The notes beneath the pieces are model-generated. The model saw only the letters and a list, made by a program, of their open reading frames with translations. It was not told where the DNA came from and ran no database searches. A stretch of 64,000 nt of DNA from an uncultured Alphaproteobacteria bacterium (GTDB lineage: Bacteria; Pseudomonadota; Alphaproteobacteria; Rs-D84): contig CAMRSV010000001.1 in NCBI GenBank assembly GCA_947053455.1, positions 113,010 to 177,009 on the forward strand. Reading direction: 5' to 3'. This document shows, in pieces, positions 11,419-60,950 of this stretch (position 1 is the first letter of the stretch; each line of letters starts with the position of its first letter). The position numbers and the translations under genes are program-made.

Positions 11419-13797
11419 TTACAACTTGGCGCGAACTTCCTCCACCTCATAACATTCGACGCGGTCACCCTCTTTCAAGTCGTTGTACTTGTCAAACGAC
11501 ATACCGAATTCAACGCCGCCAGATACTTCCTTGACTTCGTTCTTTTCGCGACGCAGTTCACCGATTTTACCATCGTATATAACAACGTTGTTGCGCAACA
11601 GGCGTACAAATGCATCCTTTTTTATCATACCCTCGGTCATGCGGCAACCGGCAACACGCGTGCCCTTGCCCACCGTAAACAATTGGATAACGTCGGCGTA
11701 TCCAATAAAGTTCTCGCGACGTTCCGGCGCCAGTTTTCCAGACAATATTTCCTTTACCTCGTCCGTGATACGGTAGACTACACTGTGGTATCTGATGTCG
11801 ACATTCGCACCGCGTGCCATGTCGCGTACGGCCGCATCTGCACGAACATTAAACGCAATTATAACCGCGTTTGATGCCGACGCCAGGCGTATGTCGCCCT
11901 CTGTAATCTGTCCAACGCCAGATGACAAGATTTCAACCCCAGCTTTGTCCGTATTAATTTCGCGCAGCATGTCGGAAATCGCCTCTACACTGCCCTGAAC
12001 ATCAGCGCGCAAAATTATCGGCAAAATCAGCTTCTTATTTTCGTCACGCTTGGCAAACAGTTCTTCTAGCGATGAACGCTTTACCGCATTTGCCTTATCG
12101 CGCGCCTTTTGTGCGCGGTATGCGGCAACTTCACGGGTTTGTGCCTCGGTCTCCATAACACGCAGGTCGTCACCCGCGGCCGGTACCGCATCAAGGCCAA
12201 GTACCACAACTGGTTGACCCGGTTTTACCGATTTAACGCGTTCGCCCGACGAATTTATAAGCCCGCGCACGCGCCCGAATGTTTCGCCGACAACAAACAC
12301 ATCGCCAATCTTTAGCGTTCCCTGACGCATCAAGACGGTTGCAACCGCGCCCAGCCCCTTTTCCATTTTTGCCTCAACCACGTATGCGATGGCCGGCATT
12401 TCCGGGTCGGCTTTCAAATCCATCATTTCCGCCTGCAGCAAAATGGCCTCTTCCAACTTATCCAGATTGATTTTTTTCGTCGCAGAAATTTCAACGCATT
12501 GAATATCACCACCCATTTCTTCAACCTGAACTTCCTGTTGCAACAGGTCTGTTTTTACGCGTTGGGCGTTTGCCTCTGGCAAATCAATTTTGTTAATCGC
12601 AACAATAAACGGAACGTTCGCGGCGCGAATGTGATTAATCGCCTCAATCGTTTGGGGCATTATGGAATCGTTTGCCGCAACAACCAAGACAACAATGTCC
12701 GCCATTTGGGCACCGCGGGCGCGCATGGCCGTAAATGTTTCGTGCCCCGGTGTGTCCAAGAATGTTATTACGGCGCCAGATTTGGTCTTTACCTCGTAGG
12801 AAGATACATGCTGGGTGATACCGCCTGCCTCTGATGCAACAACGTTTGCATTGCGAAACGCGTCCAATAATGATGTTTTACCATGGTCAACGTGTCCAAC
12901 AACGGTTACAACGGGTGCGCGCGGCTGTAATTTTGTCGCATCCGGTTCACGTTCCAAAATATCCGCATAAGGCTTCATATCAACGCGCTTTACCGTTGCA
13001 CCGAATTCGGTCGCAACCAGTTCGGCCGTATCAGCATCAATCGACTGATTTACAGACGCCATCATGCCCATTTCCATCAATTTCTTGATAACATTTCCGA
13101 CCTTTTCTGCCATTGCCGCCGCCAGGTCTTTAACCGTTATCGTATCTCCCAGTTGAACAACACGTTCAACCTTTTGTGGGGCGGCAAACATTGCGCGCGC
13201 CTTTTCCCGGAAACGTTTAAGTGACGCCTCTGATCTGCGGCGGTTCGCACCACGCAGACCGATTTCGTCATCATCGTCATCACCGCCACCCATTACGATG
13301 TCGTGCAGTGATATTTTTCCGGACTTTTTAAAATCACGATTTTTCCCATTGTTAAACTTTGACGGACGGGCGTCATCCTCTTCGCCGCGAGCCGTGCGTC
13401 TCGTAGCCGGCTGCATATTATTTTGGAATTTCTTTGACACCGGTGCGGGTTCAACCGTATCGGCCGCGGGCGCGCCTTCACGTGCAGCCAACTGCTCTTT
13501 TACCTGTTCGTATTCACGCGTCTCTCTGGCAATTTCCGCTTCACGCGCTAGGCGCTGCGCCTCTTCGGCGGCCTCGCGGGCTTTGCGTTCTTCTTCTCTC
13601 GCGCGGGCGGCCTCTAAAACGGCGCGCAGTTTTTCATCGGCCGCATTTCGCGCCGGGGTGGGTGACGCGGGTTCGTCGCGCAATTCACGCGCGCCGGGTG
13701 CCACAACGCGACGACGGCGTTCAACAAAAACCGCGTCGCCCTTCTTACTTGCAACCTGGTCTATGGTCACAGATTTTCCCAGTGTCAATGTTGCCAT
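11419..13797 (-). CDS. infB: Translation initiation factor IF-2
   Basis: 792 aa with G-domain [20 protein letters not shown] and NKID motifs. Confidence 0.9.
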
Positions 13798-21612: not shown

Positions 21613-22362
21613 TTAATATTTTGATTTTTTGCGGTTTTCGCGCGCCATTTCTTTGGCTTCACGGGCATCACGCGCTTCCTGTATAAGTTTAATTTTATCG
21701 CGCTTTATGTTTTCAATATATGTTTGTTGGTACAATTCCTGATATACATTACGGAAAAATCGGTCAAAGACGGGCGCCAATTCATCCGGATAACAGGTCA
21801 AAGGAATCTTTTTAGATCTGTTAGATTCCCTATCAATGTATAATTCCTTGCACGGCTTGCGCTTTGCATATAATTCGGGGTAATTTTTCCGTGCCTCGCT
21901 GTTAAAACGGCGGCTAACTGACAAATCGGGACGAATTCCGACAACATCGCCCAACTTGTTGTCGATAATGTCTGATAACAACGGGTCAATACGTTCAAAC
22001 GCAACAAAATATCCATCCGGAACGCGCGTTAAATCTATATTGCTGCGCCGGGCGATATCCGCAGCCATACCCGGATCATGCTGAATTTCATTTAGCATCT
22101 TTGGCGTCAAATTTATATCTATTTTACATGTTTTGCATGATTTTTCCTGAACTTCGGTTTGTGTTCTGGACGCAATTATATGTGTAAGTGTAACAAACCC
22201 CAGCACCATTACAACCAATATTAATAATACAACTTTTCCCGATACCCCGTGACTGTTATTGATGTTTGTTTCAGTTATGGAATTATTATTGCCACGTTGA
22301 ATAACGGTTTTACCAGATTTTGGTTTTATGAAACTGATAAGCCAAGATAATATCTTCGTCAT
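21613..22362 (-). CDS. Hypothetical bitopic membrane protein (pilus-cluster associated)
   Basis: Basic N-terminus, one TM (KVVLLILVVMVLGFVTLTHIIA), K/R-rich C-terminal tail. Lacks Glu+5, so not a canonical type IV pilin. Confidence 0.3.
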   Translation of the reverse strand: MTKILSWLISFIKPKSGKTVIQRGNNNSITETNINNSHGVSGKVVLLILVVMVLGFVTLTHIIASRTQTEVQEKSCKTCKIDINLTPKMLNEIQHDPGMAADIARRSNIDLTRVPDGYFVAFERIDPLLSDIIDNKLGDVVGIRPDLSVSRRFNSEARKNYPELYAKRKPCKELYIDRESNRSKKIPLTCYPDELAPVFDRFFRNVYQELYQQTYIENIKRDKIKLIQEARDAREAKEMARENRKKSKY

Positions 22363-22428
22363 GAAAACAATCCCTTCCGCATTTTTATAATATAGGATTT
22401 ATTTCCTTTGGGCAAGTCAGATTTAATT

Positions 22429-23532
22429 TTATCCCAATGCGGTGGTTATTTGGTCTTGCATCTGGAATGTTCCCAGAACAACCCATGCGATTATAGCGGA
22501 CACCAGCAAAATACCAAGACTGTTCATCGTACTGGAAATTGATTCCATTTTTCGGATGGATTCATCCAAATAATCATTTGCCACCGCAGACAAATTCGCG
22601 TCAAATCCGTTCATATCTGCATATATCGTCAAATCCCCGATTATTTCACGACTTGGAAAATCGCGGTCTGCATGATTAAGCGCCATTCCCAGATTGTCAC
22701 CGTTTGCGATAAACCCCAGTGTTCTATCCAATATACCGCCCAAATACCTGTTTGCATTATCGGCCAACATACGCATAGCAGCAGGTATTGTCACGCCCGC
22801 CGACACCATTGATGCCAAACTCATCAACCATGTGACGGAAACTTGAATCTTGTATATGCTCCATGGGGGAATTTCATCAAATTTAGAACGCAGCCATCCG
22901 GACCAGTTGGAAAGACTCAACCATATAACCAGCACGGACAGCAAAAATCCAATTACAATTGCAAACCAATAATTTATCGCAAAATCAGACATCCATATCA
23001 GTCCACGCGCAGTTCCGCGCCAAACAACATCATCACCCGCAACAGATGCCAACGGTGGCACCAGATAAACACCTACCATGATGATTATTCCAAATGTCAG
23101 CGCCAATAAGAACAACGGGTACGCAATTGCGCTGCGCATGGCGCGCTTTATACGTTGTGTACCATCGACAACACGACCGACATTTTCCAGCGCAACCACC
23201 AAATTGGACAAATTCCCCGACGTCACCAGCAACGTTTCATCCATCGGCACCCAGCCGCGCGTTGCATCGGAAAAGCTCATTCCGCGTTCCAGGTTTTTTT
23301 GCCATTCACGCATAACAATTGCAAAGGGTTCGTTTGGCTTTTTTCCGTTGTCGCTTTCTATCATTTCCAGACGACCCAGCGCATCCATCAATGTAAAATC
23401 ATTGCGCAGCAACGATGCCAATTTGCGCGCTGTCGCCATTCGCTTTTGTGTATTGAGCCGGAATACCATTTTGGCATAAAGTTTTTCGAGCGCTTCCATA
23501 TCAATACACCCCCGGTCTATCCAACAGACCAA
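22429..23532 (-). CDS. GspF/PilC-family inner-membrane platform protein (R64 PilR / TcpE / BfpE-like)
   Basis: 367 aa with three TM blocks in GspF-like topology. Immediately downstream of the GspE-type ATPase. Confidence 0.55.
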   Translation of the reverse strand: MVCWIDRGCIDMEALEKLYAKMVFRLNTQKRMATARKLASLLRNDFTLMDALGRLEMIESDNGKKPNEPFAIVMREWQKNLERGMSFSDATRGWVPMDETLLVTSGNLSNLVVALENVGRVVDGTQRIKRAMRSAIAYPLFLLALTFGIIIMVGVYLVPPLASVAGDDVVWRGTARGLIWMSDFAINYWFAIVIGFLLSVLVIWLSLSNWSGWLRSKFDEIPPWSIYKIQVSVTWLMSLASMVSAGVTIPAAMRMLADNANRYLGGILDRTLGFIANGDNLGMALNHADRDFPSREIIGDLTIYADMNGFDANLSAVANDYLDESIRKMESISSTMNSLGILLVSAIIAWVVLGTFQMQDQITTALG

Positions 23533-25135
23533 CCCATCTTTCCAACTCGTCTACACCGATTATTCCGCGCAGCATTAATTCCATGGCCGATTCTTTTAAT
23601 GTACGGCCATCCATTTCTTCTAGCCAATAACGTATCGCACCGTCTGTATTCCCGGACAAGGCTAAACCCAAAAATTCACTATTTGTGATAATGATTTCGC
23701 CGGCCTTGATACGCCCCAACGTTCCCGTTCCGTTGCATTCCGTACATCCAGCACCACGAATATAAACTTGACGCAGTCCAATTTCTCCAAATGCGTCCAA
23801 AACACGCTGATACGCCGGATTTTCTGGATGGTCCGCCAAACGTTCCCGGCAATATGGACATAATTTTTTAAAAAGACGCATGGAAACCAAACCGCGCATC
23901 ATCGTTTCTTCTTTAAGTTTGAAACCTTCTATGCCTAAATCCAGCAATCGCGTCAAAGCCGCGATGGCAGAATTGGCGTGCAGCGTTGTCCAAACATTAT
24001 GTCCAGACAACGCGCCACGTATAGTCAACTGCGCCGCGGCCAGAGTTCTGATTTCCCCCACCATCAGCGTATCAGGGTCGCTGCGTAATGCCGCGGCCAG
24101 TGCCTCGGTATACTTTTCGTCACGCTGTTCTTCGGTCGTAGTGTTTACAACCGGCATTTGATGGGCGCCGAATATTTTTTGTTCGACCGGATTTTCAACC
24201 GTTATCATGTTTATTTCATAATGCCGCTCTTTTAGCATAAGCGACATGTTCCGCGCCAATGTTGTCGATTTTCCGGAACTGGTGGGACCTGCGACAATCA
24301 CCAGCCCCGTCGGGAATGCTCGCAGACGCATCAACAACCTTTGTTCATATTCACCAAATTCCTGCTCGGTTTTTATACCTTCTGATGGATTATCATACAG
24401 TAGGCGCATAACAACGTAACGACTGCCGAAGGCAATGGGATTGAACTGCATACGAATGCTTAATATCCCCGCTGGCAGATATAAATCCTTGGTTCCGCGC
24501 AATGGTGTGCGCCCATCTTTCTGTGCGGACTGATATTCATTCTGCGCATAGTTAGCGTTTGACATGTCGGACGACGCAAATGCCGCGCGAACAAAAGATT
24601 CACCCCACCCAGAGTTATATTCCAAAACCGGCTGCATACTTCCGTCGATACGGAAATAAATCGTTGTCTGGTCTGCAACCTCTATGTGAATATCGGAAAC
24701 TTTTTGTGCAGCGGCCTTGGCAATTATATCGACAAAATCCTTTTGCATTTGGTTGTCGAAATCGCGGGTTGCGCGGCCACTGCCCAATTTTAATTCATAA
24801 GACTTGTATATCGCGGAAACCAAGCCCAAATCAGAATAGAACGGGCGGCGCATAGCGCGTCCCCGCTTTTCCAACAAATCCAGAAACGCCAGTACGCGCC
24901 CGTCATATCTATGCGTACGTGAAATTATAATCTCGCCGCCGGAAAAATACGCAATCAAACTCTGTGTATCTTTGGGCAATTCCAGTTCCGCCCCGGTCGC
25001 CGTCAGCAGTCGGTTCCCATTTGCAAATAGATAGTCAACCACGTCTTTTATTTCGGCGTTTTCCAACCCCGTTGGCACGGAATCTGTTTGCACCAGAGAA
25101 ATATTTTCCAAAGAATCGTTGTTCTGCTTTTTCAT
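23501..25135 (-). CDS. GspE/PilB-family secretion ATPase (R64 PilQ / BfpD-like)
   Basis: Walker A VAGPTSSGKSTT. Tetracysteine zinc motif CPYC...CTECNGTG, characteristic of the GspE/PilB C-terminus. Confidence 0.75.
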   Translation of the reverse strand: MKKQNNDSLENISLVQTDSVPTGLENAEIKDVVDYLFANGNRLLTATGAELELPKDTQSLIAYFSGGEIIISRTHRYDGRVLAFLDLLEKRGRAMRRPFYSDLGLVSAIYKSYELKLGSGRATRDFDNQMQKDFVDIIAKAAAQKVSDIHIEVADQTTIYFRIDGSMQPVLEYNSGWGESFVRAAFASSDMSNANYAQNEYQSAQKDGRTPLRGTKDLYLPAGILSIRMQFNPIAFGSRYVVMRLLYDNPSEGIKTEQEFGEYEQRLLMRLRAFPTGLVIVAGPTSSGKSTTLARNMSLMLKERHYEINMITVENPVEQKIFGAHQMPVVNTTTEEQRDEKYTEALAAALRSDPDTLMVGEIRTLAAAQLTIRGALSGHNVWTTLHANSAIAALTRLLDLGIEGFKLKEETMMRGLVSMRLFKKLCPYCRERLADHPENPAYQRVLDAFGEIGLRQVYIRGAGCTECNGTGTLGRIKAGEIIITNSEFLGLALSGNTDGAIRYWLEEMDGRTLKESAMELMLRGIIGVDELERWVGLLDRPGVY

Positions 25136-25156
25136 TTACTGCGCTTATATTTTGGT

Positions 25157-25870
25157 TTAGCGGTTTGCACTGATGTTTAGGTTTTGCGTCATACCATCTT
25201 TGATAAATTCAACCCCGTCGTACAATGATATTGATTTGACCGTGAACCCGTCCAACGTCTTGCCAACAGAAATCCGTTTATTTTGACCGGTCTGTAAATC
25301 CGTGACTGTTGCCTGTAATTGGGAACCTGCACCAAAAACATTAACCAGGCGATATTTTTCACCTAAATCAATATCAGTTTCAATCGGTTCATTGGCAACT
25401 TGCACCGGCGCGGTTGCAGATGCAGCTTCTGCCTGGGCTTGCAGTCGCTCCTTTTCACGGGCAAGACGGGCGGCCTCTGCCTCTAATTTCGCCTTTTCAG
25501 TTTCTATTTCCTGCTTTTGCGCCTCGGCACGCCCGGACAGCGTGTCTATTTCCATATGCAGTTTTATTTTTTCTGCCGCCAGCCGGTCTAACTCCAAATC
25601 CAACTGTGCACGTTCTTTTTCCAGCTGCATTAAAACCTTTTCCTGCTCCAATGTAGTTATCTGTTGAAAAAGGGAACCATCCGCGTTATACGCCGCAACC
25701 GCATCCGCGGTAAGTGAATCTAATTCATCATCTGTGTACCCCATATCCGGCGTCTGTGCAACCATCATCGGTTCGCTTTGAAAATCGGACGTGTCCATTT
25801 CTGCGAATGCCGGTGCGATACATGTCGCGACAAAAACAGACATTATGAAAAAATTTATCTTATTTGGCAT
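25157..25870 (-). CDS. PilP-like periplasmic protein (signal peptide, long coiled coil, C-terminal beta domain)
   Basis: C-terminus LVNVFGAGSQLQATVTDLQTGQNKRISVGKTLDGFTVKSISLYDGVEF matches the PilP/GspC HR-domain pattern. Confidence 0.4.
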   Translation of the reverse strand: MPNKINFFIMSVFVATCIAPAFAEMDTSDFQSEPMMVAQTPDMGYTDDELDSLTADAVAAYNADGSLFQQITTLEQEKVLMQLEKERAQLDLELDRLAAEKIKLHMEIDTLSGRAEAQKQEIETEKAKLEAEAARLAREKERLQAQAEAASATAPVQVANEPIETDIDLGEKYRLVNVFGAGSQLQATVTDLQTGQNKRISVGKTLDGFTVKSISLYDGVEFIKDGMTQNLNISANR

Positions 25871-27122
25871 ATATTATCACCTCATAGTTCCATATCCGAC
25901 GTGATGCATCCCAAGCGCATCGCGTCATATAAACACCGCCGAATTCATCGAATATACGCATAAATTGCGACGGTACAAGTTTTGATTCAACCGCAATTTC
26001 CACAATGTTTAGTGACATCGTGTCAACCCCATTCGACAAAACATCAACAACAATCTGGGATTCAATTGGCGTTCCGATTGACTGAAAAGCAGACTGAACA
26101 TCGCGCAAGAGTGTTTCCGCATCGCGTTCATCTTGACTTGCCACCGATTGAACCGCAGGCAACGGCACACTAACCCGCAGCATATCCTCGTTTTGCTTTG
26201 TAACGATAGCACCCGGCATTAATTCTGTTGCCATTACGTAAAAATCATCGAGAGTTCCAAAATCACGTTGAAATTCGGCGACGGCGTTCAATTCTGTGCA
26301 CTCAACAGACGTCTGGTTCCATCCGGTTACATTCTGCATTACAAATGCCATCGCACGAAAACACATATCCGCCCGCGCGGAGACATCCGGTAAACTGTCA
26401 TATGGCGGTACAATCGGTTCCGGTTCTGGTTCCTTTTCAATATTAAACTCTGCGTCTAGTTCACGATTTTTTTCTTCTATTTGTCGCTTGTACTCGGCCG
26501 CCAGTTCCGGATTTATCTGTGAAATCTGGGGGCGCGGCATCATCATTTGATGCAGCGGTTCGCGAAATATTGACCCGATAAGAGCCAAAAACAAAACAAT
26601 TATTACCAATGGCCCAAGAGCCGCACGAACACGGCTAATAGAACGTAAAACCGCGCGTGCGCCACCGGAAACAACCTCGGAAATAGTTCGTTCAACCGCG
26701 CGCGGCATACCCCATGTACCGGGTGCGACAAACGTCCCCCAATCTGGTATCTGGGATAATTTTGAATATTCAGCGCGAGCTTCGCTTTCCGTTGCAAATA
26801 ATTTGTCTTCTAAAATGACACCGTTTCGCATCGCAACCAGGTAATAACCCTTGTCTACCTGAAACACGGCTAAAAAAGATGAAAATTCCGGGAATGAATC
26901 CACAATGGAGGCCGCCGCGGATGGCATTGCGGTTCGATGTCCAAATTTTCGCGCCCCCAAGCCAACCATTGAACGATATTCTGTAAACAGGTTAAGTTTT
27001 TTATCAACGCCACGTGCAAGACTGCGTGCATAATTACGTGCAAAAAAGCCCGTTGCAACCGGCTGCCAAAACAGACCGACCGCGTATTTTTTTCTGTTAA
27101 CAGATATGACTTGGTTTGCCAA
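25860..27122 (-). CDS. PilO-like pilus assembly protein of the type IVb (R64 / S. Typhi pil) family
   Basis: 420 aa. N-terminal VISVNRKKYAVGLFWQ-type start and a central TM, as I recall for the R64 PilO accessory-protein family. Assigned from memory of that family only. Confidence 0.4.
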   Translation of the reverse strand: MANQVISVNRKKYAVGLFWQPVATGFFARNYARSLARGVDKKLNLFTEYRSMVGLGARKFGHRTAMPSAAASIVDSFPEFSSFLAVFQVDKGYYLVAMRNGVILEDKLFATESEARAEYSKLSQIPDWGTFVAPGTWGMPRAVERTISEVVSGGARAVLRSISRVRAALGPLVIIVLFLALIGSIFREPLHQMMMPRPQISQINPELAAEYKRQIEEKNRELDAEFNIEKEPEPEPIVPPYDSLPDVSARADMCFRAMAFVMQNVTGWNQTSVECTELNAVAEFQRDFGTLDDFYVMATELMPGAIVTKQNEDMLRVSVPLPAVQSVASQDERDAETLLRDVQSAFQSIGTPIESQIVVDVLSNGVDTMSLNIVEIAVESKLVPSQFMRIFDEFGGVYMTRCAWDASRRIWNYEVIIYAK

Positions 27123-27234
27123 TTTCTCCCTCTTACGATAAATTATAGCACAAAAAGATAAACCTTGGCAAATATAGAATGAAAAATACCCGATGAAAAT
27201 ATCGCCGGGTATTCAAACTTTTTTTATCTGCGTA

Positions 27235-27648
27235 TTACTTGCATCCGTATACCGGGTCACACACAGGTCCCACACCATACACCGCGGTCGAACCTGCACC
27301 ATTGGCCGCCGTGTGAACACGGTTCGGATACGGACAATCATAAACGTTTGCCGCCAATACGAATGCGCGTTCAGGGCCAAATATCACCCATTCATTTGGA
27401 CGCGTGCGCTGGCTGGTTATCCAGTATGCATTTCCGCCACGCGCCTGATCGACGATACGGTTTTCTAAATAACGACGGGCATCATCCGCGTCATATACAG
27501 AAACTTCTGATTCTATTTTGTACAAATACGTACAACCCATTGGCTCTGCATTAAGTTGTGTCAAATATTCGCTGCCGTTTTCATTCTTTATAAGTCCGCC
27601 GCACGCCGTCAGTGTTGTGAGCATTACGACCGCAAAAATCTTTTTCAT
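27235..27648 (-). CDS. Lipoprotein (lipobox LTAC), first gene of the pilus-like module
   Basis: MKKIFAVVMLTTLTACGG. 137 aa. Confidence 0.5.
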   Translation of the reverse strand: MKKIFAVVMLTTLTACGGLIKNENGSEYLTQLNAEPMGCTYLYKIESEVSVYDADDARRYLENRIVDQARGGNAYWITSQRTRPNEWVIFGPERAFVLAANVYDCPYPNRVHTAANGAGSTAVYGVGPVCDPVYGCK

Positions 27649-34443: not shown

Positions 34444-35055
34444 TTATTCAAAACATTTTTTAAGAGCCGCACCAGTATCAACCTGGTCTACGCGTTTGTT
34501 GCGTATTTCCTCGGCCGCCTTTATCTTTTGTTTTGCAATTATCAAATCCGGATGCGATTGCAGTTCTGTATTCAACCTGTCCACTGCATCAGATATTTCG
34601 GATTCAGTCCTAACAAATACAGGCATTATTGAATCCGCCGCCCCATAAACCGCATTATAAAGTTCGGTTTTATTATCTTCAATAACAGATAAATATGCGC
34701 GAATATGTTCATCTTCGTGTGATAAAATTGCATCATATGAACAGGTATCAGGACTGTGCCTCAAATCAATTTTAACCAGAAAATCACTGTACCCTATTGT
34801 AGCCGCAACAGATTTTAACCCAACGCAAAATCCGTCTTCAATCGGTGTTATATCTGCCGTTATATCATAATTATCAACCATTGTCGCAATTACGTTTCCA
34901 TGCAAATAATCCATCGGTGTCAAGGGTTGTACAACCTCCTTGGTCCAATCGGGTGTTTCGATATCAATTCGCGGCTTTAGTTTATAATCCAGGCAATCAT
35001 CAGCACGCGCCGACATCGCAAAAATTAAAAGAAATCCGATAATAAACCGTTTCAT
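34444..35055 (-). CDS. Secreted putative Zn-metallopeptidase (DUF922-like; HEDEH motif)
   Basis: Signal peptide MKRFIIGFLLIFAMSARA. HExxH motif SHEDEHIRAY. Confidence 0.4.
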   Translation of the reverse strand: MKRFIIGFLLIFAMSARADDCLDYKLKPRIDIETPDWTKEVVQPLTPMDYLHGNVIATMVDNYDITADITPIEDGFCVGLKSVAATIGYSDFLVKIDLRHSPDTCSYDAILSHEDEHIRAYLSVIEDNKTELYNAVYGAADSIMPVFVRTESEISDAVDRLNTELQSHPDLIIAKQKIKAAEEIRNKRVDQVDTGAALKKCFE

Positions 35056-35115: not shown

Positions 35116-37536
35116 TTAAAAATCACCGGCACCCTGCTTTTTTAGGTATTCGGCAACAAATGCGCTGCCGTATTGACGGTATAGTTCCTCGGCCAACAAC
35201 ACTGACGAACGACCGGATTCAAACAGTCGCAATAAACTACCCAGTCCGCCCAGTTCTGTATTTAAAATAACAGATTCACCGGTCACTGGCCGCGATAACA
35301 ATACCGCGCGTTTTAGATTCGGATATGCCTTGCCCTGAATAAACGCCATTTCAATCGGATTTAGATTCCAATGTGCATAATCGTTTGCGTCCGCCCCGGG
35401 ATTACGGAAGAACATCACCGTCTGCACCTGGCCACGAACAACGTCGCCAATCCCCAGTTTATCTAAAACGTTCGCACGCTGAAACGCGACCATGTATGCC
35501 TGGCGATTTTTGCGCCCTTCCTGCAGGCCCATTATAAAATTATCACGGAACATCTTGTTTTCCAGCATTGGCGCCGTTTCGTCAATCATAATCAGTGACG
35601 GATTACCGCCAGATACGGTTATATTATTAATTCTGTGCAATATATAAGATATAACCGCAGGGGCAAGCGTCTCGTCCTGTAATATATCTGTAAAGTCAAA
35701 TGTGGTAAGTCGCGCCTGCAAATCAAGCGTATCGGACGCATCATTAAACATGTCGCCGTACTGCAACGGATCAACCCATTTTTTCAGCGCCGGACGCATG
35801 TTGCCCGCGGATGAAAAACAACTTTCCCACAAGTTTTTAAGCAATCTGTCACGTTCGGGCAAATAATCAAAATTTACCGAAACCGCACGCGCGATTTCAT
35901 CCATGGACGTGGCGTCATTTTGCCCTGTTATCATTGCAAACCAACGTCGCAGGAACGCCCTGTTTGCCGCTGTGTCCGCCATTTTCAGCGGATTCAGACG
36001 TGTTTCAAATTGTGCGGCCATGGGGTCGGTGTTTTTTTCGCGCCCTTGCATTGTGACATATTTTCCACCAACCGAAAGTGTAAATATCTCTGCACCCTTG
36101 TTTCTATCAAAGAAAAAGGCTTTTAACTTTTGATGACGCATTGCCTGCGCAATCAGGAAACTAAACAACGTAGTTTTACCACCACCGGTCGGCCCTATGG
36201 TAAGGGTATGCCCCACCGCCGCGGGTGCATCAGATACATGAAATTGAAACTGATACGGGGTTCCCTGCGCCGTCGGGAATACAACCAATGGTCCCGACCC
36301 CCAGTCGGAATTTGCAACACCACGCGGCTGGGTTGACATGGGAATGCTTATCGCGGCCGTCCGCGACAACATCTTGAAACTGCGCGGAAAAACATCAAAA
36401 CCCGGAATCTGTGAAAACCACGAAACCTTTGATGCAAATGTTTCAACAATTGGCGACACACCAAAAGACGCGGAAATCTTTCTAAATTCATCGATATATT
36501 TATCCAGTTTCCCCGGCGTTTTTCCAAACAATACGAACAACGGATAATAATTTACCAAGCTTTGATTACCGGACAGATTTTCATCCATCGCGCGATTTGC
36601 GGCGTCAATCTGGGAATGAGTGGAATCATTTTCCTCTTCTGCGGTTGTGCGACGCTGACGCAGGGCAACCTCTACATCCGCGGCGCCCATTACGCGGAAA
36701 CCGTTCATACAAATCATTTCAGTCTGAATTGTGGAAACGGTGGTAAAAAATTCCTCGTCCAGGTAATCGGGCGATATGCGAAAGGACAACATCGCCGCAT
36801 AAGATTCTTCGTTGCCGCTTATATACCTAACCAGGCCATTTTGCAAAAATTCCACATTATCAACGGCAACCAAATCAGAAATATTGTTATCACACACGGC
36901 GGGCGTGGGCTTTGAAATCGGGGACAAAATACGCCCAAAAAATCGCGCCATATTGTCTGGCGACGTATTTTTCAATACGCTTGGTCTGTACGCCGCCAAA
37001 ATCGATTCAATGTAATTTCCATACTGATTTAATTTGCCACGCGCGGACGCACCAGACACCGACAGCACAATATAATAACTGTTCAGAAAAATGCGCAATC
37101 CCTGCGATTTCCATTTGTCATATATTTTTTGCAGCACAGGCTGATGAAACTCGTAATCTGTGTTTTCGTCGGCTGCGTCACGAACCATATAAAAACGCAA
37201 AGTGACACTGGGGTCATGTATCTGGTTGAACAATTGCGTGCGTAAATCCAAAAATTTTTCACGGGTTGCGTCATCTTGCATACTGGTTTGAACCCCAACA
37301 ACACGATATACACGAACAAGTGACCCGTCCGTTAATTCAATTGAATTATCGTCAAAAACTGTCTTGAACGGCAGGTATCTGGCATATGATGCATAGCCAA
37401 ACCGAGGAAACACCCGGCGAACCAATGCCGGCACGTACATCATCATCACAACAAAGACCAGCACCGTTATCATCGCCAGAACGATTGTTGTTATCGGGAA
37501 TCCGCCACCTGCAAAGTATTCAAAAAATCCGTTCAT
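35116..37536 (-). CDS. virB4: Type IV secretion system ATPase VirB4
   Basis: 806 aa. N-terminal TM, Walker A TIGPTGGGKTTLFS, overall VirB4/TrbE architecture. Confidence 0.85.
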   Translation of the reverse strand: MNGFFEYFAGGGFPITTIVLAMITVLVFVVMMMYVPALVRRVFPRFGYASYARYLPFKTVFDDNSIELTDGSLVRVYRVVGVQTSMQDDATREKFLDLRTQLFNQIHDPSVTLRFYMVRDAADENTDYEFHQPVLQKIYDKWKSQGLRIFLNSYYIVLSVSGASARGKLNQYGNYIESILAAYRPSVLKNTSPDNMARFFGRILSPISKPTPAVCDNNISDLVAVDNVEFLQNGLVRYISGNEESYAAMLSFRISPDYLDEEFFTTVSTIQTEMICMNGFRVMGAADVEVALRQRRTTAEEENDSTHSQIDAANRAMDENLSGNQSLVNYYPLFVLFGKTPGKLDKYIDEFRKISASFGVSPIVETFASKVSWFSQIPGFDVFPRSFKMLSRTAAISIPMSTQPRGVANSDWGSGPLVVFPTAQGTPYQFQFHVSDAPAAVGHTLTIGPTGGGKTTLFSFLIAQAMRHQKLKAFFFDRNKGAEIFTLSVGGKYVTMQGREKNTDPMAAQFETRLNPLKMADTAANRAFLRRWFAMITGQNDATSMDEIARAVSVNFDYLPERDRLLKNLWESCFSSAGNMRPALKKWVDPLQYGDMFNDASDTLDLQARLTTFDFTDILQDETLAPAVISYILHRINNITVSGGNPSLIMIDETAPMLENKMFRDNFIMGLQEGRKNRQAYMVAFQRANVLDKLGIGDVVRGQVQTVMFFRNPGADANDYAHWNLNPIEMAFIQGKAYPNLKRAVLLSRPVTGESVILNTELGGLGSLLRLFESGRSSVLLAEELYRQYGSAFVAEYLKKQGAGDF

Positions 37537-37539
37537 ATT

Positions 37540-37836
37540 TTACGCCACCAGTTTATTCGGTATCTTTTTTTTCATCAGTTGTATTTTTGCCGCGACAATC
37601 TGACCCAGTTGTGGATCGCGCTTTGAAAATGCCGCCAAAATCATATGTACCACAATGACGGACAACAAAAACCACAAAGGATTAATTACACCCTGCCCCT
37701 TTGTAAGAACCAAGCTTACGACAAAAATCGCCATAAATATCAAAAACTGAAGGGTAAAGTTTATCACAGCCAGCATATATGGCACATAAAATATACGCGC
37801 CGGGTTTGCCAATGCTTTCAGAACTTGCTGTTTCAT
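37540..37836 (-). CDS. virB3: Type IV secretion system protein VirB3
   Basis: About 98 aa with two TM segments and the NPLW...PLWF-like motif. Stop is 4 nt from the virB4 start. The long ORF to 37932 is probably upstream read-through. Confidence 0.7.
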   Translation of the reverse strand: MKQQVLKALANPARIFYVPYMLAVINFTLQFLIFMAIFVVSLVLTKGQGVINPLWFLLSVIVVHMILAAFSKRDPQLGQIVAAKIQLMKKKIPNKLVA

Positions 37837-37868
37837 AATCTCTCCCCTTGTGTTAAAAATTATAACAA

Positions 37869-38061
37869 TTTCAACAATTTTCAACAAGCATAAAAAATAT
37901 ATGAAATATTTTGTTAAAAGTGTTGAAAACATGATAGTTTTTTAACAGTTAATTAAATGCATAAGTTTTCAACAAATTTCTAAAAATCCGCAGAAAATTA
38001 ACAAAAAATTGTTGAAAACTTGTTAAAAAATACATAATAAACGTTTTCAACAGTTTCAACA
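37869..38061. promoter_or_regulatory. Array of seven TTTCAACA 9-mers (5 direct, 2 inverted) in the virB3/rpmJ divergent intergenic region
   Basis: Copies at 37869, 37878, 37921(inv), 37966, 38010(inv), 38044, 38054. TTAA-N7-TTAA at 37942-37956. Confidence 0.5.
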
Positions 38062-38146
38062 GGCACTATAAAAACAACAAATAATATAATAATTATTTGA
38101 TTTTTTCCAAAAAGCGTTTATAATCGGCAGGTAAAAAGGATTTGAT

Positions 38147-38281
38147 ATGAAATTTTTAAGTTCATTAAAGGCTTGGAAAAAACGCGGCAATGTAAAACAG
38201 ATTCGTCGTGGTAAGCAGATTATCCTGATTGATCCGGATAATCCGAAATTCAAGGCCAAGCAGGGCTTTAAGAAAAAATAA
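38147..38281 (+). CDS. rpmJ: Ribosomal protein bL36, zinc-independent paralog (no Cys)
   Basis: MKFLSSLKAWKKRGNVKQIRRGKQIILIDPDNPKFKAKQGFKKK. SD AAGGA 7 nt upstream. Below the ORF-track size cutoff. Confidence 0.7.
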   Translation: MKFLSSLKAWKKRGNVKQIRRGKQIILIDPDNPKFKAKQGFKKK

Positions 38282-55278: not shown

Positions 55279-55854
55279 ATGATTGATAATGTCAAATTTG
55301 AACAATACGAAAAAATGTTGCGCGATTGGTCGGCGCGCATGAATTTGGTTGCCCCCAGCACGCTGGCCGACATAAAGATGCGACATTTTGCCGATTCGGC
55401 ACAGTTGGCAAATTTACTGCCGCGTGATGCGCAGATTGTAGATTTGGGCAGCGGTGCCGGATTCCCCGGCGTGGTTTTGGCCATATTGGGATGGCGCGTG
55501 ACATGTATTGAATCTATTGGCAAAAAGGCTGCATTTTTGTCGGCATTAAAAGATGAATTAGATTTGCCGAATTTAACCGTGTTTCATGGCCGGGTTGAAG
55601 ACTATATAAAAAAATTACGCCCCGTGCCCGAAAATTTGATTTTTACTGCCCGCGCATTTGCCTCATTAACCAAAATTCTGGATTATGTCGCACCGGCAAA
55701 TCGCCAATTGTTTTTATTAAAAGGCCGGGATATTGCATCCGAGATTGATGCCGCAAAACAAAAATATAAGTTTGATTACGAACTTGTGCCGTCCAAAACA
55801 GGTGATGGTTTTGTGATTATTATTAAAAATTGCCGGTTGTTTCATGTGAAATAA
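55279..55854 (+). CDS. rsmG: 16S rRNA (guanine527-N7)-methyltransferase
   Basis: GidB family: SAM motif VDLGSGAGFPG. Confidence 0.85.
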   Translation: MIDNVKFEQYEKMLRDWSARMNLVAPSTLADIKMRHFADSAQLANLLPRDAQIVDLGSGAGFPGVVLAILGWRVTCIESIGKKAAFLSALKDELDLPNLTVFHGRVEDYIKKLRPVPENLIFTARAFASLTKILDYVAPANRQLFLLKGRDIASEIDAAKQKYKFDYELVPSKTGDGFVIIIKNCRLFHVK

Positions 55855-55871: not shown

Positions 55872-56789
55872 TTAGCGTGTTTTAATGTTTTTATAAAAAT
55901 GCTTGTTTTGGCCGGCGATTTTTATAACCAAAGAATCTATTTTTGTAATCAAGTTAGTTTTTGTGAGATTTGATGAATGTATCCATGGGTTAACCGTGCC
56001 GCGACGACTTTCGAATTGCCATAATGGTTCCCATATGTTTAAGTCCGGATTAAACAGCGAATACTGCGCGGTTTCGCAATGTTCGCATGGTATATATAAT
56101 ATTTGTCTGTTGGCCAGCTTTTCGGAAATTGCCTTGCGGTAAAGGTGACTGTGTTTTAAAAAATATTCGCCGGCATGTCTAATGGTTATGTCTGCAATTT
56201 TTTGGTTATTGAAATCAATCGGCCATTCCAGATTGGTTGCCTTTATTTCTGCTAAAATCTCGTTGCGCGCCAATCGTGTCAAGTTATCCAATCCTGGGTA
56301 CTTTTTCCCGGTATCAAATTCATAATCCAATGCGGCGATTATTTCGGCGGTACATGAAACTATTTCATTAAAAACCTCTACACGGGCGCGGGTTGTTCCG
56401 GTGTAAACCGGTTTGTTGACCAGAGCCGCCTTTCGTGCATGTTCCATTTCGTGTCGCATCACAGTAATTCTGCGCGTGCAAATATATTTGCAAAAATTTT
56501 GTATTTCAGTGGTGCTATCCTGTGCCAGATAGTGGTTAATTTTGATTCGGTTTTTATAATTATTAAAACTTCCCAGCGTATATCGTTTTTTTATTTTATT
56601 AAAATTTTCACGGCTGATATAAATCGTATCGTGTGTAAAATCTAGTTTTTGTGGCCATAATGGCATACCGGTATTTGCCGGTATTTTTTCGATTGTTTTG
56701 TGTCTTGATATGGGGCCGTTTGTTGTCATAATAAACGCCACAGACAAAACAAATGCAATTGATAAAAACGCTTTTTCTGAATATTTCAT
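55872..56789 (-). CDS. Hypothetical secreted or membrane protein with an HEMEH metalloprotease-like motif, inserted between rsmG and parA
   Basis: RHEMEHARKAAL HExxH. Alternative starts at 56813, 56789 and 56666. A copy of the palindromic repeat lies at 56667-56684 inside the N-terminal region. Confidence 0.4.
   Translation of the reverse strand: MKYSEKAFLSIAFVLSVAFIMTTNGPISRHKTIEKIPANTGMPLWPQKLDFTHDTIYISRENFNKIKKRYTLGSFNNYKNRIKINHYLAQDSTTEIQNFCKYICTRRITVMRHEMEHARKAALVNKPVYTGTTRARVEVFNEIVSCTAEIIAALDYEFDTGKKYPGLDNLTRLARNEILAEIKATNLEWPIDFNNQKIADITIRHAGEYFLKHSHLYRKAISEKLANRQILYIPCEHCETAQYSLFNPDLNIWEPLWQFESRRGTVNPWIHSSNLTKTNLITKIDSLVIKIAGQNKHFYKNIKTR
56660..56690. repeat. Palindromic repeat family, variant copy (TACCGGtatttgCCGGTA + T-run)
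   Basis: Same arms as the other copies. Located within or just upstream of the N-terminus of the HExxH ORF. Confidence 0.55.
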
Positions 56790-56961
56790 ACAAAAAATAT
56801 AGTTCAAAAACACTTGTTTGTCAATAAAAACGTTTGTTATTTCATGTGAAACAAACTTTATCTCATTGTTTATTCTATGTTTTTATAATTTTGTGTTTAA
56901 ATATCTTGACATGGTAAAGGTGGTTTTAATAACCTTCAACATGAAAAAGAAACGGATTAAA

Positions 56962-57744
56962 ATGACAAAAGTAATCGCATTTGCAAATCAAAAGGGCGGG
57001 GTTGGTAAAACCACAACCGCCATTAATATCGGTGCGTCGTTGGCGGCGATAAAAAAACGTGTGTTGTTAATTGATTTAGACCCCCAAGGTAATGCAGGAA
57101 CGGGCCTTGGGTTTGTTCGCGCATCACATCGACAAAGTGTTTATGGCGTTATAATGGGAATGGCGTCGGCGGCTGATAACATTTTATCAACTGCGGTGCC
57201 GGGGCTGCATATTATGCCATCGTCCCAGGCACTATCTGGGGCAGAGGTTGATTTGCTGGATATGGATAACCGTGAATATCGTTTGCGTGACGCATTGGCG
57301 TCCGTGCGCGACCATTATGATTACATATTATTGGATTGTCCGCCGGCGTTGGGGTATTTGACGCTAAATGCGCTGACGACAGCCGACGCGGTAATAATCC
57401 CGTTACAGTGCGAATTCTTCGCGTTGGAGGGTATTCAGCACCTGGTCAACACAATTTCAGAGGTTCAGACAAAATGGAACCCTAATTTGGAAATTCTGGG
57501 GGTTTTGCTAACCATGTACGACAAACGGTATGGCTTGACACGAGCGGTTGACGAAGATGTAAGAAATACGTTTGGTGACCGGGTTTTCAAAACCGTTGTC
57601 CCACGTAATGTTCGTGTGTCCGAGGCACCAAGTCACGGCAAGCCGGCATTGTTTTATGATTTTAATTCAAGTGGCGCCCAGGCGTACCTGCGCGTCGCGA
57701 CAGAGGTTGTTCAAAAAACAGAAGGGGATTTAACAAATGTCTAA
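56962..57744 (+). CDS. parA: Chromosome partitioning ATPase ParA
   Basis: KVIAFANQKGGVGKTTT deviant Walker A. Start ATG 56962 (alternatives 56941, 56818). Confidence 0.85.
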   Translation: MTKVIAFANQKGGVGKTTTAINIGASLAAIKKRVLLIDLDPQGNAGTGLGFVRASHRQSVYGVIMGMASAADNILSTAVPGLHIMPSSQALSGAEVDLLDMDNREYRLRDALASVRDHYDYILLDCPPALGYLTLNALTTADAVIIPLQCEFFALEGIQHLVNTISEVQTKWNPNLEILGVLLTMYDKRYGLTRAVDEDVRNTFGDRVFKTVVPRNVRVSEAPSHGKPALFYDFNSSGAQAYLRVATEVVQKTEGDLTNV

Positions 57745-58612
57745 ATTTGGATTGGGACGCGGCTTGGCCGACTTAAAAAATGAAATGGGGACAATTCCCG
57801 ATATATCGATTTTAACCGGTGCAGAGCGCGTTGTTGTAAAGCAGATTCCAATAGTTCAAATTGGCGCCAACCCTGATCAGCCACGCAAGACTTTTTCTGA
57901 TAATGAATTGTCGGATTTGGCAGCATCTATCAAAGAAAAGGGTGTTTTACAGCCAATATTGCTGCGTGCGGTGTCAGGGCGCCCGTATTTGTACGAAATT
58001 GTCGCCGGTGAACGCCGTTACCGAGCTAGCAAAATGGCTGGATTGTCCGAAATACCCGCGCTGGTAAAGACTTTGAATGACGAAAATGCAATGGAAATTG
58101 CATTGATTGAAAATGTGCAGCGTGAAAATCTAAATCCAATAGAAGAGGGCGCTGCATATAAAAACTTGATGGAAAAGTGCGGATACGAATTGGCAGATGT
58201 GTCGCGTCTTATCGGAAAATCAGAAAGTTATATAAAAAACATAATGCGCTTGGATGCTTTGCCGGCTGATGTAAAGGTCATGGTGGAGGATGGGGCGCTT
58301 TCCGCGTCACATGCCCGAACAATTTCAGTGGCAGAAAACCCGTCAGAGATTGCGCGTGAAATTGTTGCAGAAAAATTATCAGTTTCCGAAACACAGAAAC
58401 GCGTAAAAAGTGGCGCCCGATGTGTCACAAGCCGCGCAAGCACAAGTAGCGGCATGCAGGCTGATGAAATTTGTGAAATAGAAAGGCAGTTGGAATCCGC
58501 AATTGGGGCGCCGGTTAAATTACAGGAACGACGCGGTGGTGCAGGGCAGTTTGTGATACAATTTTCAACCCGGACACAGATGCGTGAATTAATTGAAAGA
58601 TTAACCAAATAA
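57737..58612 (+). CDS. parB: Chromosome partitioning protein ParB
   Basis: ParB box GERR (AGERRYRAS). HTH. 291 aa. Confidence 0.85.
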   Translation: MSKFGLGRGLADLKNEMGTIPDISILTGAERVVVKQIPIVQIGANPDQPRKTFSDNELSDLAASIKEKGVLQPILLRAVSGRPYLYEIVAGERRYRASKMAGLSEIPALVKTLNDENAMEIALIENVQRENLNPIEEGAAYKNLMEKCGYELADVSRLIGKSESYIKNIMRLDALPADVKVMVEDGALSASHARTISVAENPSEIAREIVAEKLSVSETQKRVKSGARCVTSRASTSSGMQADEICEIERQLESAIGAPVKLQERRGGAGQFVIQFSTRTQMRELIERLTK

Positions 58613-58934: not shown

Positions 58935-59300
58935 TTAAATTTTGTCCCCAGGATAAAGATAGCTGCATATAAAACATTTATTTATGCCTCCTGGCGTGTG
59001 GTTTGTATAGTAAAAGCATGTTTCTCTTGATGGGGTTGCAGCGCATGTGCCATATGTTTGCGAGTAATATCCCTTATTATCGCTGGTTTCCCGGTCTTTT
59101 ATACGCGTGCAGGTGTTTCCGGTCAATGATAATATCCAGCCAGTTGGGCAAGAGTATGTTGTTTCTGTTTCCAGACTCGGGCAACAATAACCGCTTTCTT
59201 TATTAGCGCAGCATTCTAATTGATCTGGGCATGTTAACGAGGCTTGTGCTGTTGTAATAAATGCAAACGCAAGAATAAAAAACGGTATAAATTTTGTCAT
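58935..59300 (-). CDS. Small secreted Cys-rich protein, divergent family member 3
   Basis: Signal peptide ending AQA. 14 Cys. GYY..x..G.C element. Confidence 0.55.
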   Translation of the reverse strand: MTKFIPFFILAFAFITTAQASLTCPDQLECCANKESGYCCPSLETETTYSCPTGWILSLTGNTCTRIKDRETSDNKGYYSQTYGTCAATPSRETCFYYTNHTPGGINKCFICSYLYPGDKI

Positions 59301-59450
59301 TTTTGGCCTCTTTATTGGTTAAAACAAAACCACCAGGTTTTTTTGGTGGTCAGGAGGCTGAGAACAATTGCACGAATTGCACGATTTATTGGTTATTTAA
59401 TCGCCCTCCTGACCGTGGTCAGGAGTTTGTTTATCGTCGTAATAAAAACG
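59301..59450 (-). promoter_or_regulatory. Structured 5' leader (attenuator-like) of the Cys-rich gene pair
   Basis: GGTCAGGAGG (59348-57), CCTCCTGACC (59405-14) and GGTCAGGAG (59417-25) give alternative pairings. On the mRNA a CCACCA-n8-TGGTGG hairpin plus U-run lies directly adjacent. Architecture is the same as 2440-2638. Confidence 0.5.
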
Positions 59451-59599
59451 GCATGATACGCCACAAATATATTCCGACGTGTGCAATAGGGATTCTCAGG
59501 CCCTGCCGCGGTAACCCACCGCGATATAAAGATTATATGAATTTTCATGAATTGTGTAAAGTCAAAAAGGCCATATTGATAAATATTGCATTACAAACA

Positions 59600-60560
59600 A
59601 AAGCTTTGTCAATTTTATTTTAGTAAAATGTATAAAAATACCGGTTTTCTGCGGTTTTTAGAAATTTCTTGAATCGTTTCAAAGGATTTTTGCGGGTACA
59701 TATTGCCGTGTTTGTCGGCGCAAAAACAGCCATATTTCAGGTGTTTTTTTGCCATATTATAGTGTGCTTTTGTGGGGTATAAATCTTGCTATATGATAAG
59801 CGGATTTATCTAAAATGTATATGGCGTTATTGCATGACTGTGTGGTGGCGTTTTTTTTATCAAATGGTTGTGTCATGATGGCTTTTTATTAGTAATTCTT
59901 TATAAAACATATGTTTTTTAAGGCCTAATGTACGGTTAAAATACAATTTTTTGCGTATGATTTTGTTATAAAATTGTCGGCAAATACCGGTATTTTAATT
60001 TATAAAATATCTATATCGATAGATATATGCAAAATGTGAGTGTATTTTGTTAATTTTTAATAAAATGCCGATTTGAAAAAGCCGTTTTTCTTGTGCGGTT
60101 CATGATTGGATGCTAAAAAAATATAAAATAATATTAAAAAAAGCATGCTTGTTGATGATGAAATTTCCGTAAATATTACCGCATTTCTTAAACATTTGCC
60201 AAATAATATATGTACCAATAATCGTGTTGTCAATAAAAAAGACCTTTTTGTTATTTCATTGTATTTTTTAGTCTAAATAAGTATAATGATTCTATGATTT
60301 TTTTCAGGTTTTCTGCGGCTTGTAGGGATTTATTGCAAAGTTATAGTGATGTAGGGTAAAGATAATACCGGTACATATTGCCGTGTTTGTCAACCTGTTT
60401 TTTGTGGTTTTTAGGGAAAAAGTTGTATTACTTATTTGTTGTCTTGAATTTATTGTCAATATTGTTAAATAGATTGCGTATTTTATATGGTTATGTGTGG
60501 TTTTTAGGACTGTGTTGGGTATTTATTTATCTTTAATATGTCATCAATGGGGATTGGCAT
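59600..60560. repeat. Repeat-rich AT-rich non-coding tract with degenerate direct repeats
   Basis: Exact 21-bp repeat GTACATATTGCCGTGTTTGTC at 59699 and 60374. Recurring TTTTCTGCGG, GTGGTTTTTAGG and TACCGGTA motifs. No ORF with coding character. Confidence 0.5.
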
Positions 60561-60918
60561 ATATGTTTTTTTAATAATGGCATCCATAATGCTTGGTCAT
60601 GGGCGGATGGTTTGTTTTACATCAAGGCATTTGATTTTAATTAGGGGCACGGGGATTTTTCATCTGATGCCCCCAGTTGCGGGCAGATTACAGTATTTTA
60701 ATACCTTTATCTGCATTTTTGGTCTGTTTTAGTATTTTATTTACCTATAATATATCGCCACAGCCGGGTGATTTTCATATTTTATGTCATTATGTGCGTT
60801 TTTTTTTTGTCTGTGGTGATATGCTTATCTGCTTGATTTCATAAAGTGCCGGTATTTTTAATGGCAAATGGTCAATATAGTTAAAATTTGATGATGATAT
60901 ATGAATATTTATAAAAAA

Positions 60919-60950
60919 AGCGCGGACAATTGTCCGCGCTTAAACAACGT
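60919..60950 (-). terminator. Terminator downstream of pal
   Basis: Perfect palindrome AGCGCGGACAATTGTCCGCGCT with an A/T run. Confidence 0.6.

Follow-up and report, generated by a model that had tools for sequence, protein, structure and literature searches.

A cluster of DnaA-box-like repeats in the virB3/rpmJ spacer as the putative chromosomal origin of a Candidatus Enterousia genome

The virB3/rpmJ locus and its repeats

The DNA considered here is a 64-kb stretch (the window) from an uncultured alphaproteobacterium, in which two genes of a type IV secretion system (T4SS) and a ribosomal protein gene are transcribed away from a common A+T-rich spacer:

35116-37536, minus strand: virB4 (Pfam CagE_TrbE_VirB; 77-97% identity over 80 Enterousia loci)
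37540-37839, minus strand: virB3 (Pfam VirB3, 8.8e-9)
37840-38146: virB3-rpmJ spacer, 307 bp, 77% A+T; candidate oriC by skew breakpoint, box cluster and conservation
38147-38281, plus strand: rpmJ, ribosomal protein L36 of the Cys-free type (Pfam Ribosomal_L36, 24.7 bits, just below the 26.1 cut-off; 95% identity across loci)

An earlier reading, made from the sequence alone, had named the flanking genes virB3, virB4 and an L36 paralog; Pfam agrees with all three assignments, but no support was seen for the term paralog. The gene directly downstream of virB4 (34444-35055, minus strand) encodes a protein of 203 aa that matches no Pfam family and whose N-terminus resembles a signal peptide; the protein is present in 80/80 related loci (40-68% identity) and may be a T4SS-associated component or substrate. 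A pilus/type II secretion-like operon (21613-27648, minus strand), with a T2SSE ATPase, a T2SSF platform protein, a PilO-like protein and several ORFs with no Pfam match, lies 10 kb from virB, and none of its promoters carries the 9-mer described below. The Rfam search of the window returned a single tRNA and nothing else.

The spacer is marked by a short repeat, TTTCAACA, of which seven exact copies lie within 193 bp, five on the plus strand (37869, 37879, 37967, 38045 and 38054) and two on the minus strand (37921 and 38010). The five direct and two inverted copies of the sequence-only reading are thus borne out where it had placed them, against 0.09 copies expected (mean of 20,000 first-order simulations with the composition of the spacer, maximum 3). 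Its term "9-mers" was loose in length, the exact motif being the 8-mer core of a 9-mer, TTTTCAACA. In the whole window there are 15 copies of TTTCAACA (6.1 +/- 2.25 expected), and the eight copies outside the spacer are dispersed and all coding. The same reading had considered that similar frequencies in other AT-rich intergenic DNA would argue against enrichment; the remaining 7.4 kb of intergenic DNA of the window, with a 1.66-kb stretch at 68% AT, holds no copy, and the enrichment stands. When one mismatch to TTTTCAACA is allowed, ten of the 61 matches in the window fall within 37851-38061 (211 bp), and no other intergenic motif site is found across 82 kb (window plus extensions).

The cluster is strongly conserved. 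A search with VirB4 yielded 80 species-level loci, nearly all from metagenome-assembled genomes of the gut that bear the label Candidatus Enterousia or uncultured Alphaproteobacteria. Candidatus Enterousia is a genus of the order Rs-D84, in which genomes measure 0.75-1.0 Mb (PMC12306168). Motif copies occur at constant offsets upstream of virB4 in 80/80 loci, and about ten sites hold fixed positions in ~75 Candidatus Enterousia species; once 76 spacers are aligned, conservation is highest in islands at the motif sites, and the intervening DNA drifts. The order rpmJ, spacer, virB3-virB4, 203-aa protein is kept in all 75 loci with enough sequence. A second motif cluster is absent within +/-6 kb in 79/80 genomes, as it is elsewhere in the window, the sole exception (L057) being a minor cluster of three copies ~2.8 kb upstream.

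The sites lie in both orientations, as four tandem pairs 9-11 bp apart (S2-S3, plus, 10 bp; S4-S5, minus, 9 bp; S8-S9, minus, 11 bp; S10-S11, plus, 9 bp) and two single plus-strand sites (S6 and S7). They are as follows, with conservation counted over the 76 aligned genomes:

37868-37876, plus strand: S2, predicted DnaA box, ATTTCAACA; exact core in 67/76; falls near -16 to -24 in the predicted promoter of virB3
37878-37886, plus strand: S3, TTTTCAACA; exact in 74/76; over the -35 region of the predicted virB3 promoter
37912-37920, minus strand: S4, cTTTTAACA, a weaker variant; WWWYAACN in 73/76
37921-37929, minus strand: S5, TTTTCAACA; TTTTCAACA in 30/76, TTTTTAACA in 27/76
37939-37947, plus strand: S6, TTTTTAACA in the window, genus consensus TTTTCAACT; relaxed motif in 66/76
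37966-37974, plus strand: S7, TTTTCAACA; exact in 41/76, relaxed in 68/76
38010-38018, minus strand: S8, TTTTCAACA; TTTTCAACA in 42/76 and TTTTTAACA in 34/76, hence the motif in 76/76
38021-38029, minus strand: S9, TTTTTAACA, in other species TTATTAACA or TTATCAACA; relaxed motif in 53/76, position 3 alternating between A and T
38044-38052, plus strand: S10, TTTTCAACA; exact core in 59/76, relaxed in 73/76
38053-38061, plus strand: S11, GTTTCAACA, in tandem with S10; exact core in 27/76, relaxed in 40/76

Strand composition and gene neighbourhood

The raw cumulative GC skew of the window falls to ~38 kb, stays flat to ~48 kb and then climbs. Since this curve tracks gene orientation, a gene-wise regression was used, in which GC and AT skew at third codon positions (GC3 and AT3) were explained by orientation and by "side", and all 47 inter-gene breakpoints were scanned. 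The best breakpoint in the window is 37993 for GC3 and, independently, for AT3, with side effects of +0.108 (p = 2e-7) and -0.075 (p = 6e-8), respectively. In an 82-kb composite, obtained by joining the window to two overlapping public contigs (10 kb to the left, 8 kb to the right; ~9% of a genome of ~0.9 Mb), the best breakpoint is 38137 (GC3, p = 1e-11; AT3, p = 3e-12), and none of 300 gene-order permutations equals this fit. When the same regression is run within each related locus, the side effect keeps its sign throughout for GC3 (73/73 genomes) and in most cases for AT3 (68/73). On either side, the strand leading away from the spacer has G>C and T>A, and the skew arms reach tens of kb in both directions; judged by proteobacterial skews in general, such polarity marks an origin rather than a terminus. 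The resolution of the skew is ~+/-1.5 kb, and the breakpoint is assigned to the virB3/rpmJ spacer partly because no other non-coding stretch of that interval exceeds 60 bp. The GC-skew check for an origin that the sequence-only reading had proposed therefore comes out in favour of one, with orientation-corrected GC3 and AT3 both switching sign at the spacer.

Two other places were considered as origins and rejected. The mreC/rpmI spacer (48.65-48.79 kb), at the bottom of the raw cumulative GC skew, has no repeats and gives a much poorer orientation-corrected fit, and the A+T-rich region at 59.3-60.95 kb, after parB, has no TTTCAACA and is 20 kb away from the breakpoint in skew. The gene-strand bias on the right-hand side of the virB3/rpmJ spacer is weak, and the 8.5-kb dnaG-mreC block points towards the spacer and would be transcribed head-on.

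A group of origin-indicator genes and parS-like sites is found 17-20 kb to the right of the spacer:

55279-55854, plus strand: rsmG/gidB, origin-indicator gene (Pfam GidB on the identical gene in contig L201)
55838-55853: parS-like palindrome TGTTTCATGTGAAATA (motif count)
56838-56853: second parS-like palindrome (motif count)
56818-58612, plus strand: parA-parB (Pfam AAA_31/ParA and ParB_N/HTH_ParB)

When both strands are counted, TGTTTCATGTGAAATA has four matches against 0.24 expected. The set gidB-parAB-parS is the one usually found close to bacterial origins. Between gidB and parA, and flanked by the two palindromes, there is an unannotated ORF of 305-313 aa (55872-56813, minus strand). 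Neither dnaA nor dnaN nor hemE is found between -10 and +72 kb in window coordinates (82 kb annotated), and uroporphyrinogen decarboxylase, the hemE product, is likewise missing among the annotated genes of the 82 kb.

Just past parB, the stretch 59300-60950 (1.6 kb, 34-35% G+C) has no convincing gene, is kept in three contigs of the same species (L201-L203) and contains the repeats ACCGGTTTTCTGCGGTTTTTAG (four copies), the exact 22-mer GGTACATATTGCCGTGTTTGTC (two copies) and AATACCGGTA (three copies). A 30-nt piece of it (59645-59673) matches the spacer at 37968-37997 (93%, E = 2e-4). The "CCGCAG" element common to the spacer and the 59.6-kb repeats was considered as a core origin element and rejected, as it is present in only ~21/76 species.

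Gene order around the spacer varies in one further respect. In about nine genomes (L015, L026, L034, L042, L044, L047, L055 and L069 among them) the sufBD-like/ychF/dnaG block is inverted and lies on the virB4 side of the spacer, as would follow from an inversion of ~4 kb across the putative origin; in bacterial chromosomes, inversions centred on the origin are the rearrangement seen most often. In seven further genomes a local flip of the ychF/sufBD-like pair is seen.

Identity of the repeats

From 532 aligned sites the profile T.72 T.93 T.89/A.10 T.96 C.72/T.23 A.98 A.99 C.99 A.97 was obtained, which corresponds to the consensus TT(T/a)T(C/t)AACA. The soft positions, 3 (T/A) and 5 (C/T), coincide with those of the DnaA box TTWTNCACA, and the sole systematic departure from it is the A that replaces C at position 6 (A6), a position at which C is almost invariant in the classical consensus. 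Canonical boxes TTWTNCACA are absent from the spacer and form no cluster anywhere in the 64-kb window, so that the cluster of boxes expected of an oriC is found here only for the variant box. GATC and GANTC methylation sites are both absent from the spacer.

The variant itself is documented. TT(T/A)TCAACA has been proposed as the DnaA-box consensus of mollicutes, although a review on phytoplasmas doubts that it is sufficient there (PMC3322544), and a "ttttcaaca" motif served to locate the origin of Lawsonia intracellularis (PMC2671203). As in the present spacer, the mollicute/phytoplasma and Lawsonia boxes are the same 9-mer with A6, clustered in intergenic DNA at a skew switch; in contrast, their hosts are Mollicutes and a relative of Desulfovibrio, with the clusters beside or near dnaA, whereas the present spacer belongs to an alphaproteobacterium and has no dnaA within 80 kb. 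The short list of lineages with the A6 variant would thereby gain an alphaproteobacterial member.

Taken together, these data make it probable that this small-genome gut alphaproteobacterium, a Candidatus Enterousia, uses the virB3/rpmJ spacer (37840-38146) as its chromosomal oriC and the TT(T/a)T(C/t)AACA repeats as DnaA boxes. Further points in favour are the inversions around the spacer, the conserved stability minimum beside S10-S11 and the boxes of this type in contigs L102 and L127 (below); points against are the A at position 6, the absence of dnaA, dnaN and hemE between -10 and +72 kb, and the weak strand bias of the genes on the right with the head-on dnaG-mreC block. By analogy with the documented variant, and given the skew switch and the nearby gidB-parAB-parS, the boxes are most likely bound by DnaA rather than by a transcription factor, whether T4SS-specific or global. 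The same three lines of evidence lend support to a suggestion raised as a possibility in the sequence-only reading, that of an origin-like element. An uncultured and widespread gut lineage would thus have a concrete origin candidate, which can anchor genome start coordinates and whose position can be used in metagenomic growth-rate (peak-to-trough) estimates and in the design of replicative vectors.

A different reading keeps the origin and changes the binding protein: the repeats might be bound by a CtrA-type cell-cycle regulator or another factor, the real DnaA boxes being few and degenerate as in Caulobacter Cori. CtrA sites are known in alphaproteobacterial origins, and the sequence-only reading had drawn attention to a CtrA-type box in the middle of the repeats:

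37942-37956: TTAACAGTTAATTAA, TTAA-N7-TTAA, here judged incidental

The box is present, but a role for CtrA does not follow from it. TTAA-N7-TTAA occurs twice in the 64-kb window against 3.6 times expected. In only 29/76 genomes does the 400-bp segment contain it at any place, and in most species the aligned position is occupied by TCAACTGTTAATTAT; the window has the box because its S6 carries T at position 5. It is true that the variants with T at position 5 contain TTAAC, and that S9-S8, with its 11-bp spacing, reads TTAA-N7-TCAAC in the window and would read TTAA-N7-TTAAC in the ~34/76 species with TTTTTAACA at S8. However, the C found at position 5 in 72% of the sites destroys TTAA, the tandem pairs are spaced by 9, 10, 11 and 9 bp and not by a constant 11 bp, the box is neither conserved nor enriched, and the spacer has no other DnaA-box-like sequence. 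An origin or promoter controlled by CtrA was therefore rejected, as no conserved TTAA-N7-TTAA(C) is found over the 76 genomes, and the wider reading, with a CtrA-type or other binder at a true origin, is considered quite improbable.

Repeats of the same type occur in other bacteria. A metagenome scan for the tandem pair gave 120 loci, mostly unrelated and none of them the Enterousia locus, of which only three, L102, L127 and L162, proved useful. L102 (SKEP01000499.1, 9801-13779; an unrelated bacterium with 44% G+C) has dnaA followed by dnaN, with TTTTCAACA boxes upstream and downstream of dnaA (11090; 12743 and 12774; 13700-13761), and appears to be a dnaA-linked origin using the A6 box variant. 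In L127, a human gut contig with 58% G+C, five TTTTCAACA are interleaved with three canonical TTTTCCACA in one spacer between an OmpR-type regulator gene and ftsH (1780-2110), and in L162 (JABEBW010002983.1, 4900-5240) twelve TTTCAACA lie in one spacer, with groES-groEL on one side and a metallophosphatase/coaD pair on the other. Both spacers are possible origins or DnaA-titration sites.

The array in L162 also bears on another explanation of the Enterousia repeats, namely that they are the iterons at which a Rep protein binds an integrated replicon, of plasmid or ICE type, tied to the virB genes. Iterons are likewise short direct repeats in A+T-rich DNA, virB3-virB4 are conjugation-type genes, and the unrelated contig L162 has twelve copies in one spacer; that array, however, is also chromosomal, lying between groES-groEL and coaD. 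Around the present spacer there is no rep, relaxase or integrase gene, and the flanks are housekeeping (rpmJ, ychF, dnaG, topA, rmlCD). Moreover, skew arms extending over tens of kb on either side and a locus fixed in ~75 species (75/75 genomes) are at odds with an integrated element, which we regard as very improbable indeed. The chromosomal oriC remains the preferred interpretation.

Promoters, unwinding and known origins

Both promoters predicted in the spacer face outwards, and the A+T-rich candidates for duplex opening lie beside the boxes:

37859-37867, minus strand: predicted virB3 promoter, extended -10 TGTTATAAT (reverse complement of ATTATAACA), box-like "S1", read from sequence
37887-37911: possible alternative unwinding element, between the converging S3 and S4/S5; NAN triplets; stability and sequence not conserved
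38062-38066: G+C-rich clamp GGCAC, after S10-S11; local maximum of duplex stability, conserved
38070-38105: candidate unwinding element, with the lowest duplex stability in the spacer, 92-96% AT
38097-38124, plus strand: predicted rpmJ promoter, TTGATT-16-TATAAT; top promoter-like site in the scan (10/12 matches), both hexamers conserved

The box-like ATTATAACA is better read on the minus strand, as a predicted perfect extended -10 for virB3, in which ATTATA is constant among the listed variants and TGn is shared by 74/76 genomes. With the -10 element so placed, S2 and S3 cover the spacer and the -35 region of the virB3 promoter, and this overlap makes it possible that the box-binding protein also controls virB3-virB4, as a side effect.

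The promoters also bear on the first proposal of the sequence-only reading, a multi-site regulator of the T4SS genes. The spacer would then be the operator array of a T4SS-specific or global transcription factor serving the divergent virB3-virB4 and rpmJ promoters, and its coincidence with the skew switch would be accidental. The position of S2 and S3 on the predicted virB3 promoter and of S10/S11 at 45-75 bp upstream of the predicted rpmJ promoter is in line with this, as is the fact that the repeats stayed with virB3 and rpmJ in 75/75 loci; furthermore, response regulators of the winged-helix class typically have tandem direct repeats with a spacing of 9-11 bp as well. On the other hand, ~10 sites over 200 bp in both orientations far exceed what the control of a promoter needs, and not even a pair of sites is found at any other promoter, whether in the 82 kb or in the related DNA (80 x 14 kb). 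Besides, the sequence and its degeneracy profile fit the reported DnaA-box variant, and GC3 and AT3 independently choose this spacer among 47 breakpoints. With the skew switch, the partition genes and the motif all pointing to DnaA, a dedicated regulator is not favoured and appears unlikely. The cluster is most likely an element of a familiar type at a new location rather than a site dedicated to a secretion-system regulator; reading the apparent T4SS regulator array as replication machinery guards against the mis-annotation of a regulon.

As a replication origin, the spacer would work in a manner envisaged here by analogy with the origins of E. coli, B. subtilis and Caulobacter. DnaA would occupy the boxes and oligomerise, and would open a neighbouring A+T-rich stretch, for which 38070-38105 is the best candidate, after which replication forks would leave bidirectionally. 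Transcription from the outward virB3 and rpmJ promoters would leave negative supercoils behind and favour opening, as with gidA at the E. coli oriC, while DnaA on S2/S3 would sit on the virB3 promoter, damp transcription of virB3-virB4 and tie their expression to initiator occupancy.

Judged from its sequence, the stretch 38070-38105, beside S10-S11 and the clamp, is the likeliest candidate for an unwinding element. The minimum of nearest-neighbour energy over 21 bp falls at 38080-38100 in 76/76 genomes (mean -18.4, sd 0.7), and the predicted rpmJ promoter adjoins this least stable DNA. According to the DnaA-trio rule, unwinding sites have the form box-spacer-(NAN)n (PMC8287927). In the test applied here, at least three NAN were looked for within 16 bp of a box with at most two mismatches, on the correct strand. 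A trio run on the expected strand is found beside S4 in 72/76 genomes, a pattern that chance alone would give in A-rich DNA, where the rule is too permissive to weigh much; beside S10-S11 the NAN run is on the opposite strand from the expected one, the strand being assumed from R1 and the 13-mers of the E. coli oriC. The spacer resembles the basal unwinding system of B. subtilis and many other bacteria (PMC8287927, PMC6669920) in that the tandem pairs S4-S5, S8-S9 and S10-S11 abut A+T-rich DNA and a clamp follows S10-S11, but it differs in the (NAN)n run, present on the expected strand only beside S4 (again by a rule too permissive in such A-rich DNA) and absent beside S10-S11.

Other known origins offer both parallels and contrasts. 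The oriC of E. coli, with its gidA and mioC promoters, is generally known to be separate from dnaA and to contain ~10 initiator sites, oriented either way, with an A+T-rich element on one edge and flanking promoters, one of them with a DnaA box, all features with a putative counterpart in the present spacer. By contrast, the spacer has no GATC/SeqA sites, its IHF consensus is not conserved (present in 32/76 genomes), both of its promoters would fire outwards and its boxes differ at position 6. The origins of Caulobacter (Cori), Rickettsia and Wolbachia, which belong to the same bacterial class, are likewise A+T-rich and intergenic, with an internal promoter and gidB-parAB nearby; they are, however, next to hemE, with CtrA and IHF sites, whereas no hemE is found in 82 kb here and TTAA-N7-TTAA is not conserved. 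Their boxes are few and weak, while those of the spacer are numerous and strong.

Seen against these origins, the predicted oriC would be mildly unusual in two respects, in that an alphaproteobacterium has the A6 box variant and that a promoter of secretion genes lies inside the origin. A more far-reaching proposal, which we put forward tentatively and consider doubtful as a whole, is that throughout the order Rs-D84/Enterousia, gut alphaproteobacteria with reduced genomes, the specificity of the DnaA box has shifted to TTTTCAACA (A6, 98% invariant), the origin has moved beside the T4SS operon and the virB3-virB4 promoter within oriC is occluded by DnaA. If this were true, the occluded promoter would couple expression of the secretion machine to the replication cycle.

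At the far left of the window, a single ORF of 593 aa (357-2138, plus strand) carries both FtsA and ribulose-phosphate 3-epimerase domains. Public contigs have the identical product called as a single gene, next to ftsQ, and the ORF is either an unusual fusion or two genes read as one.
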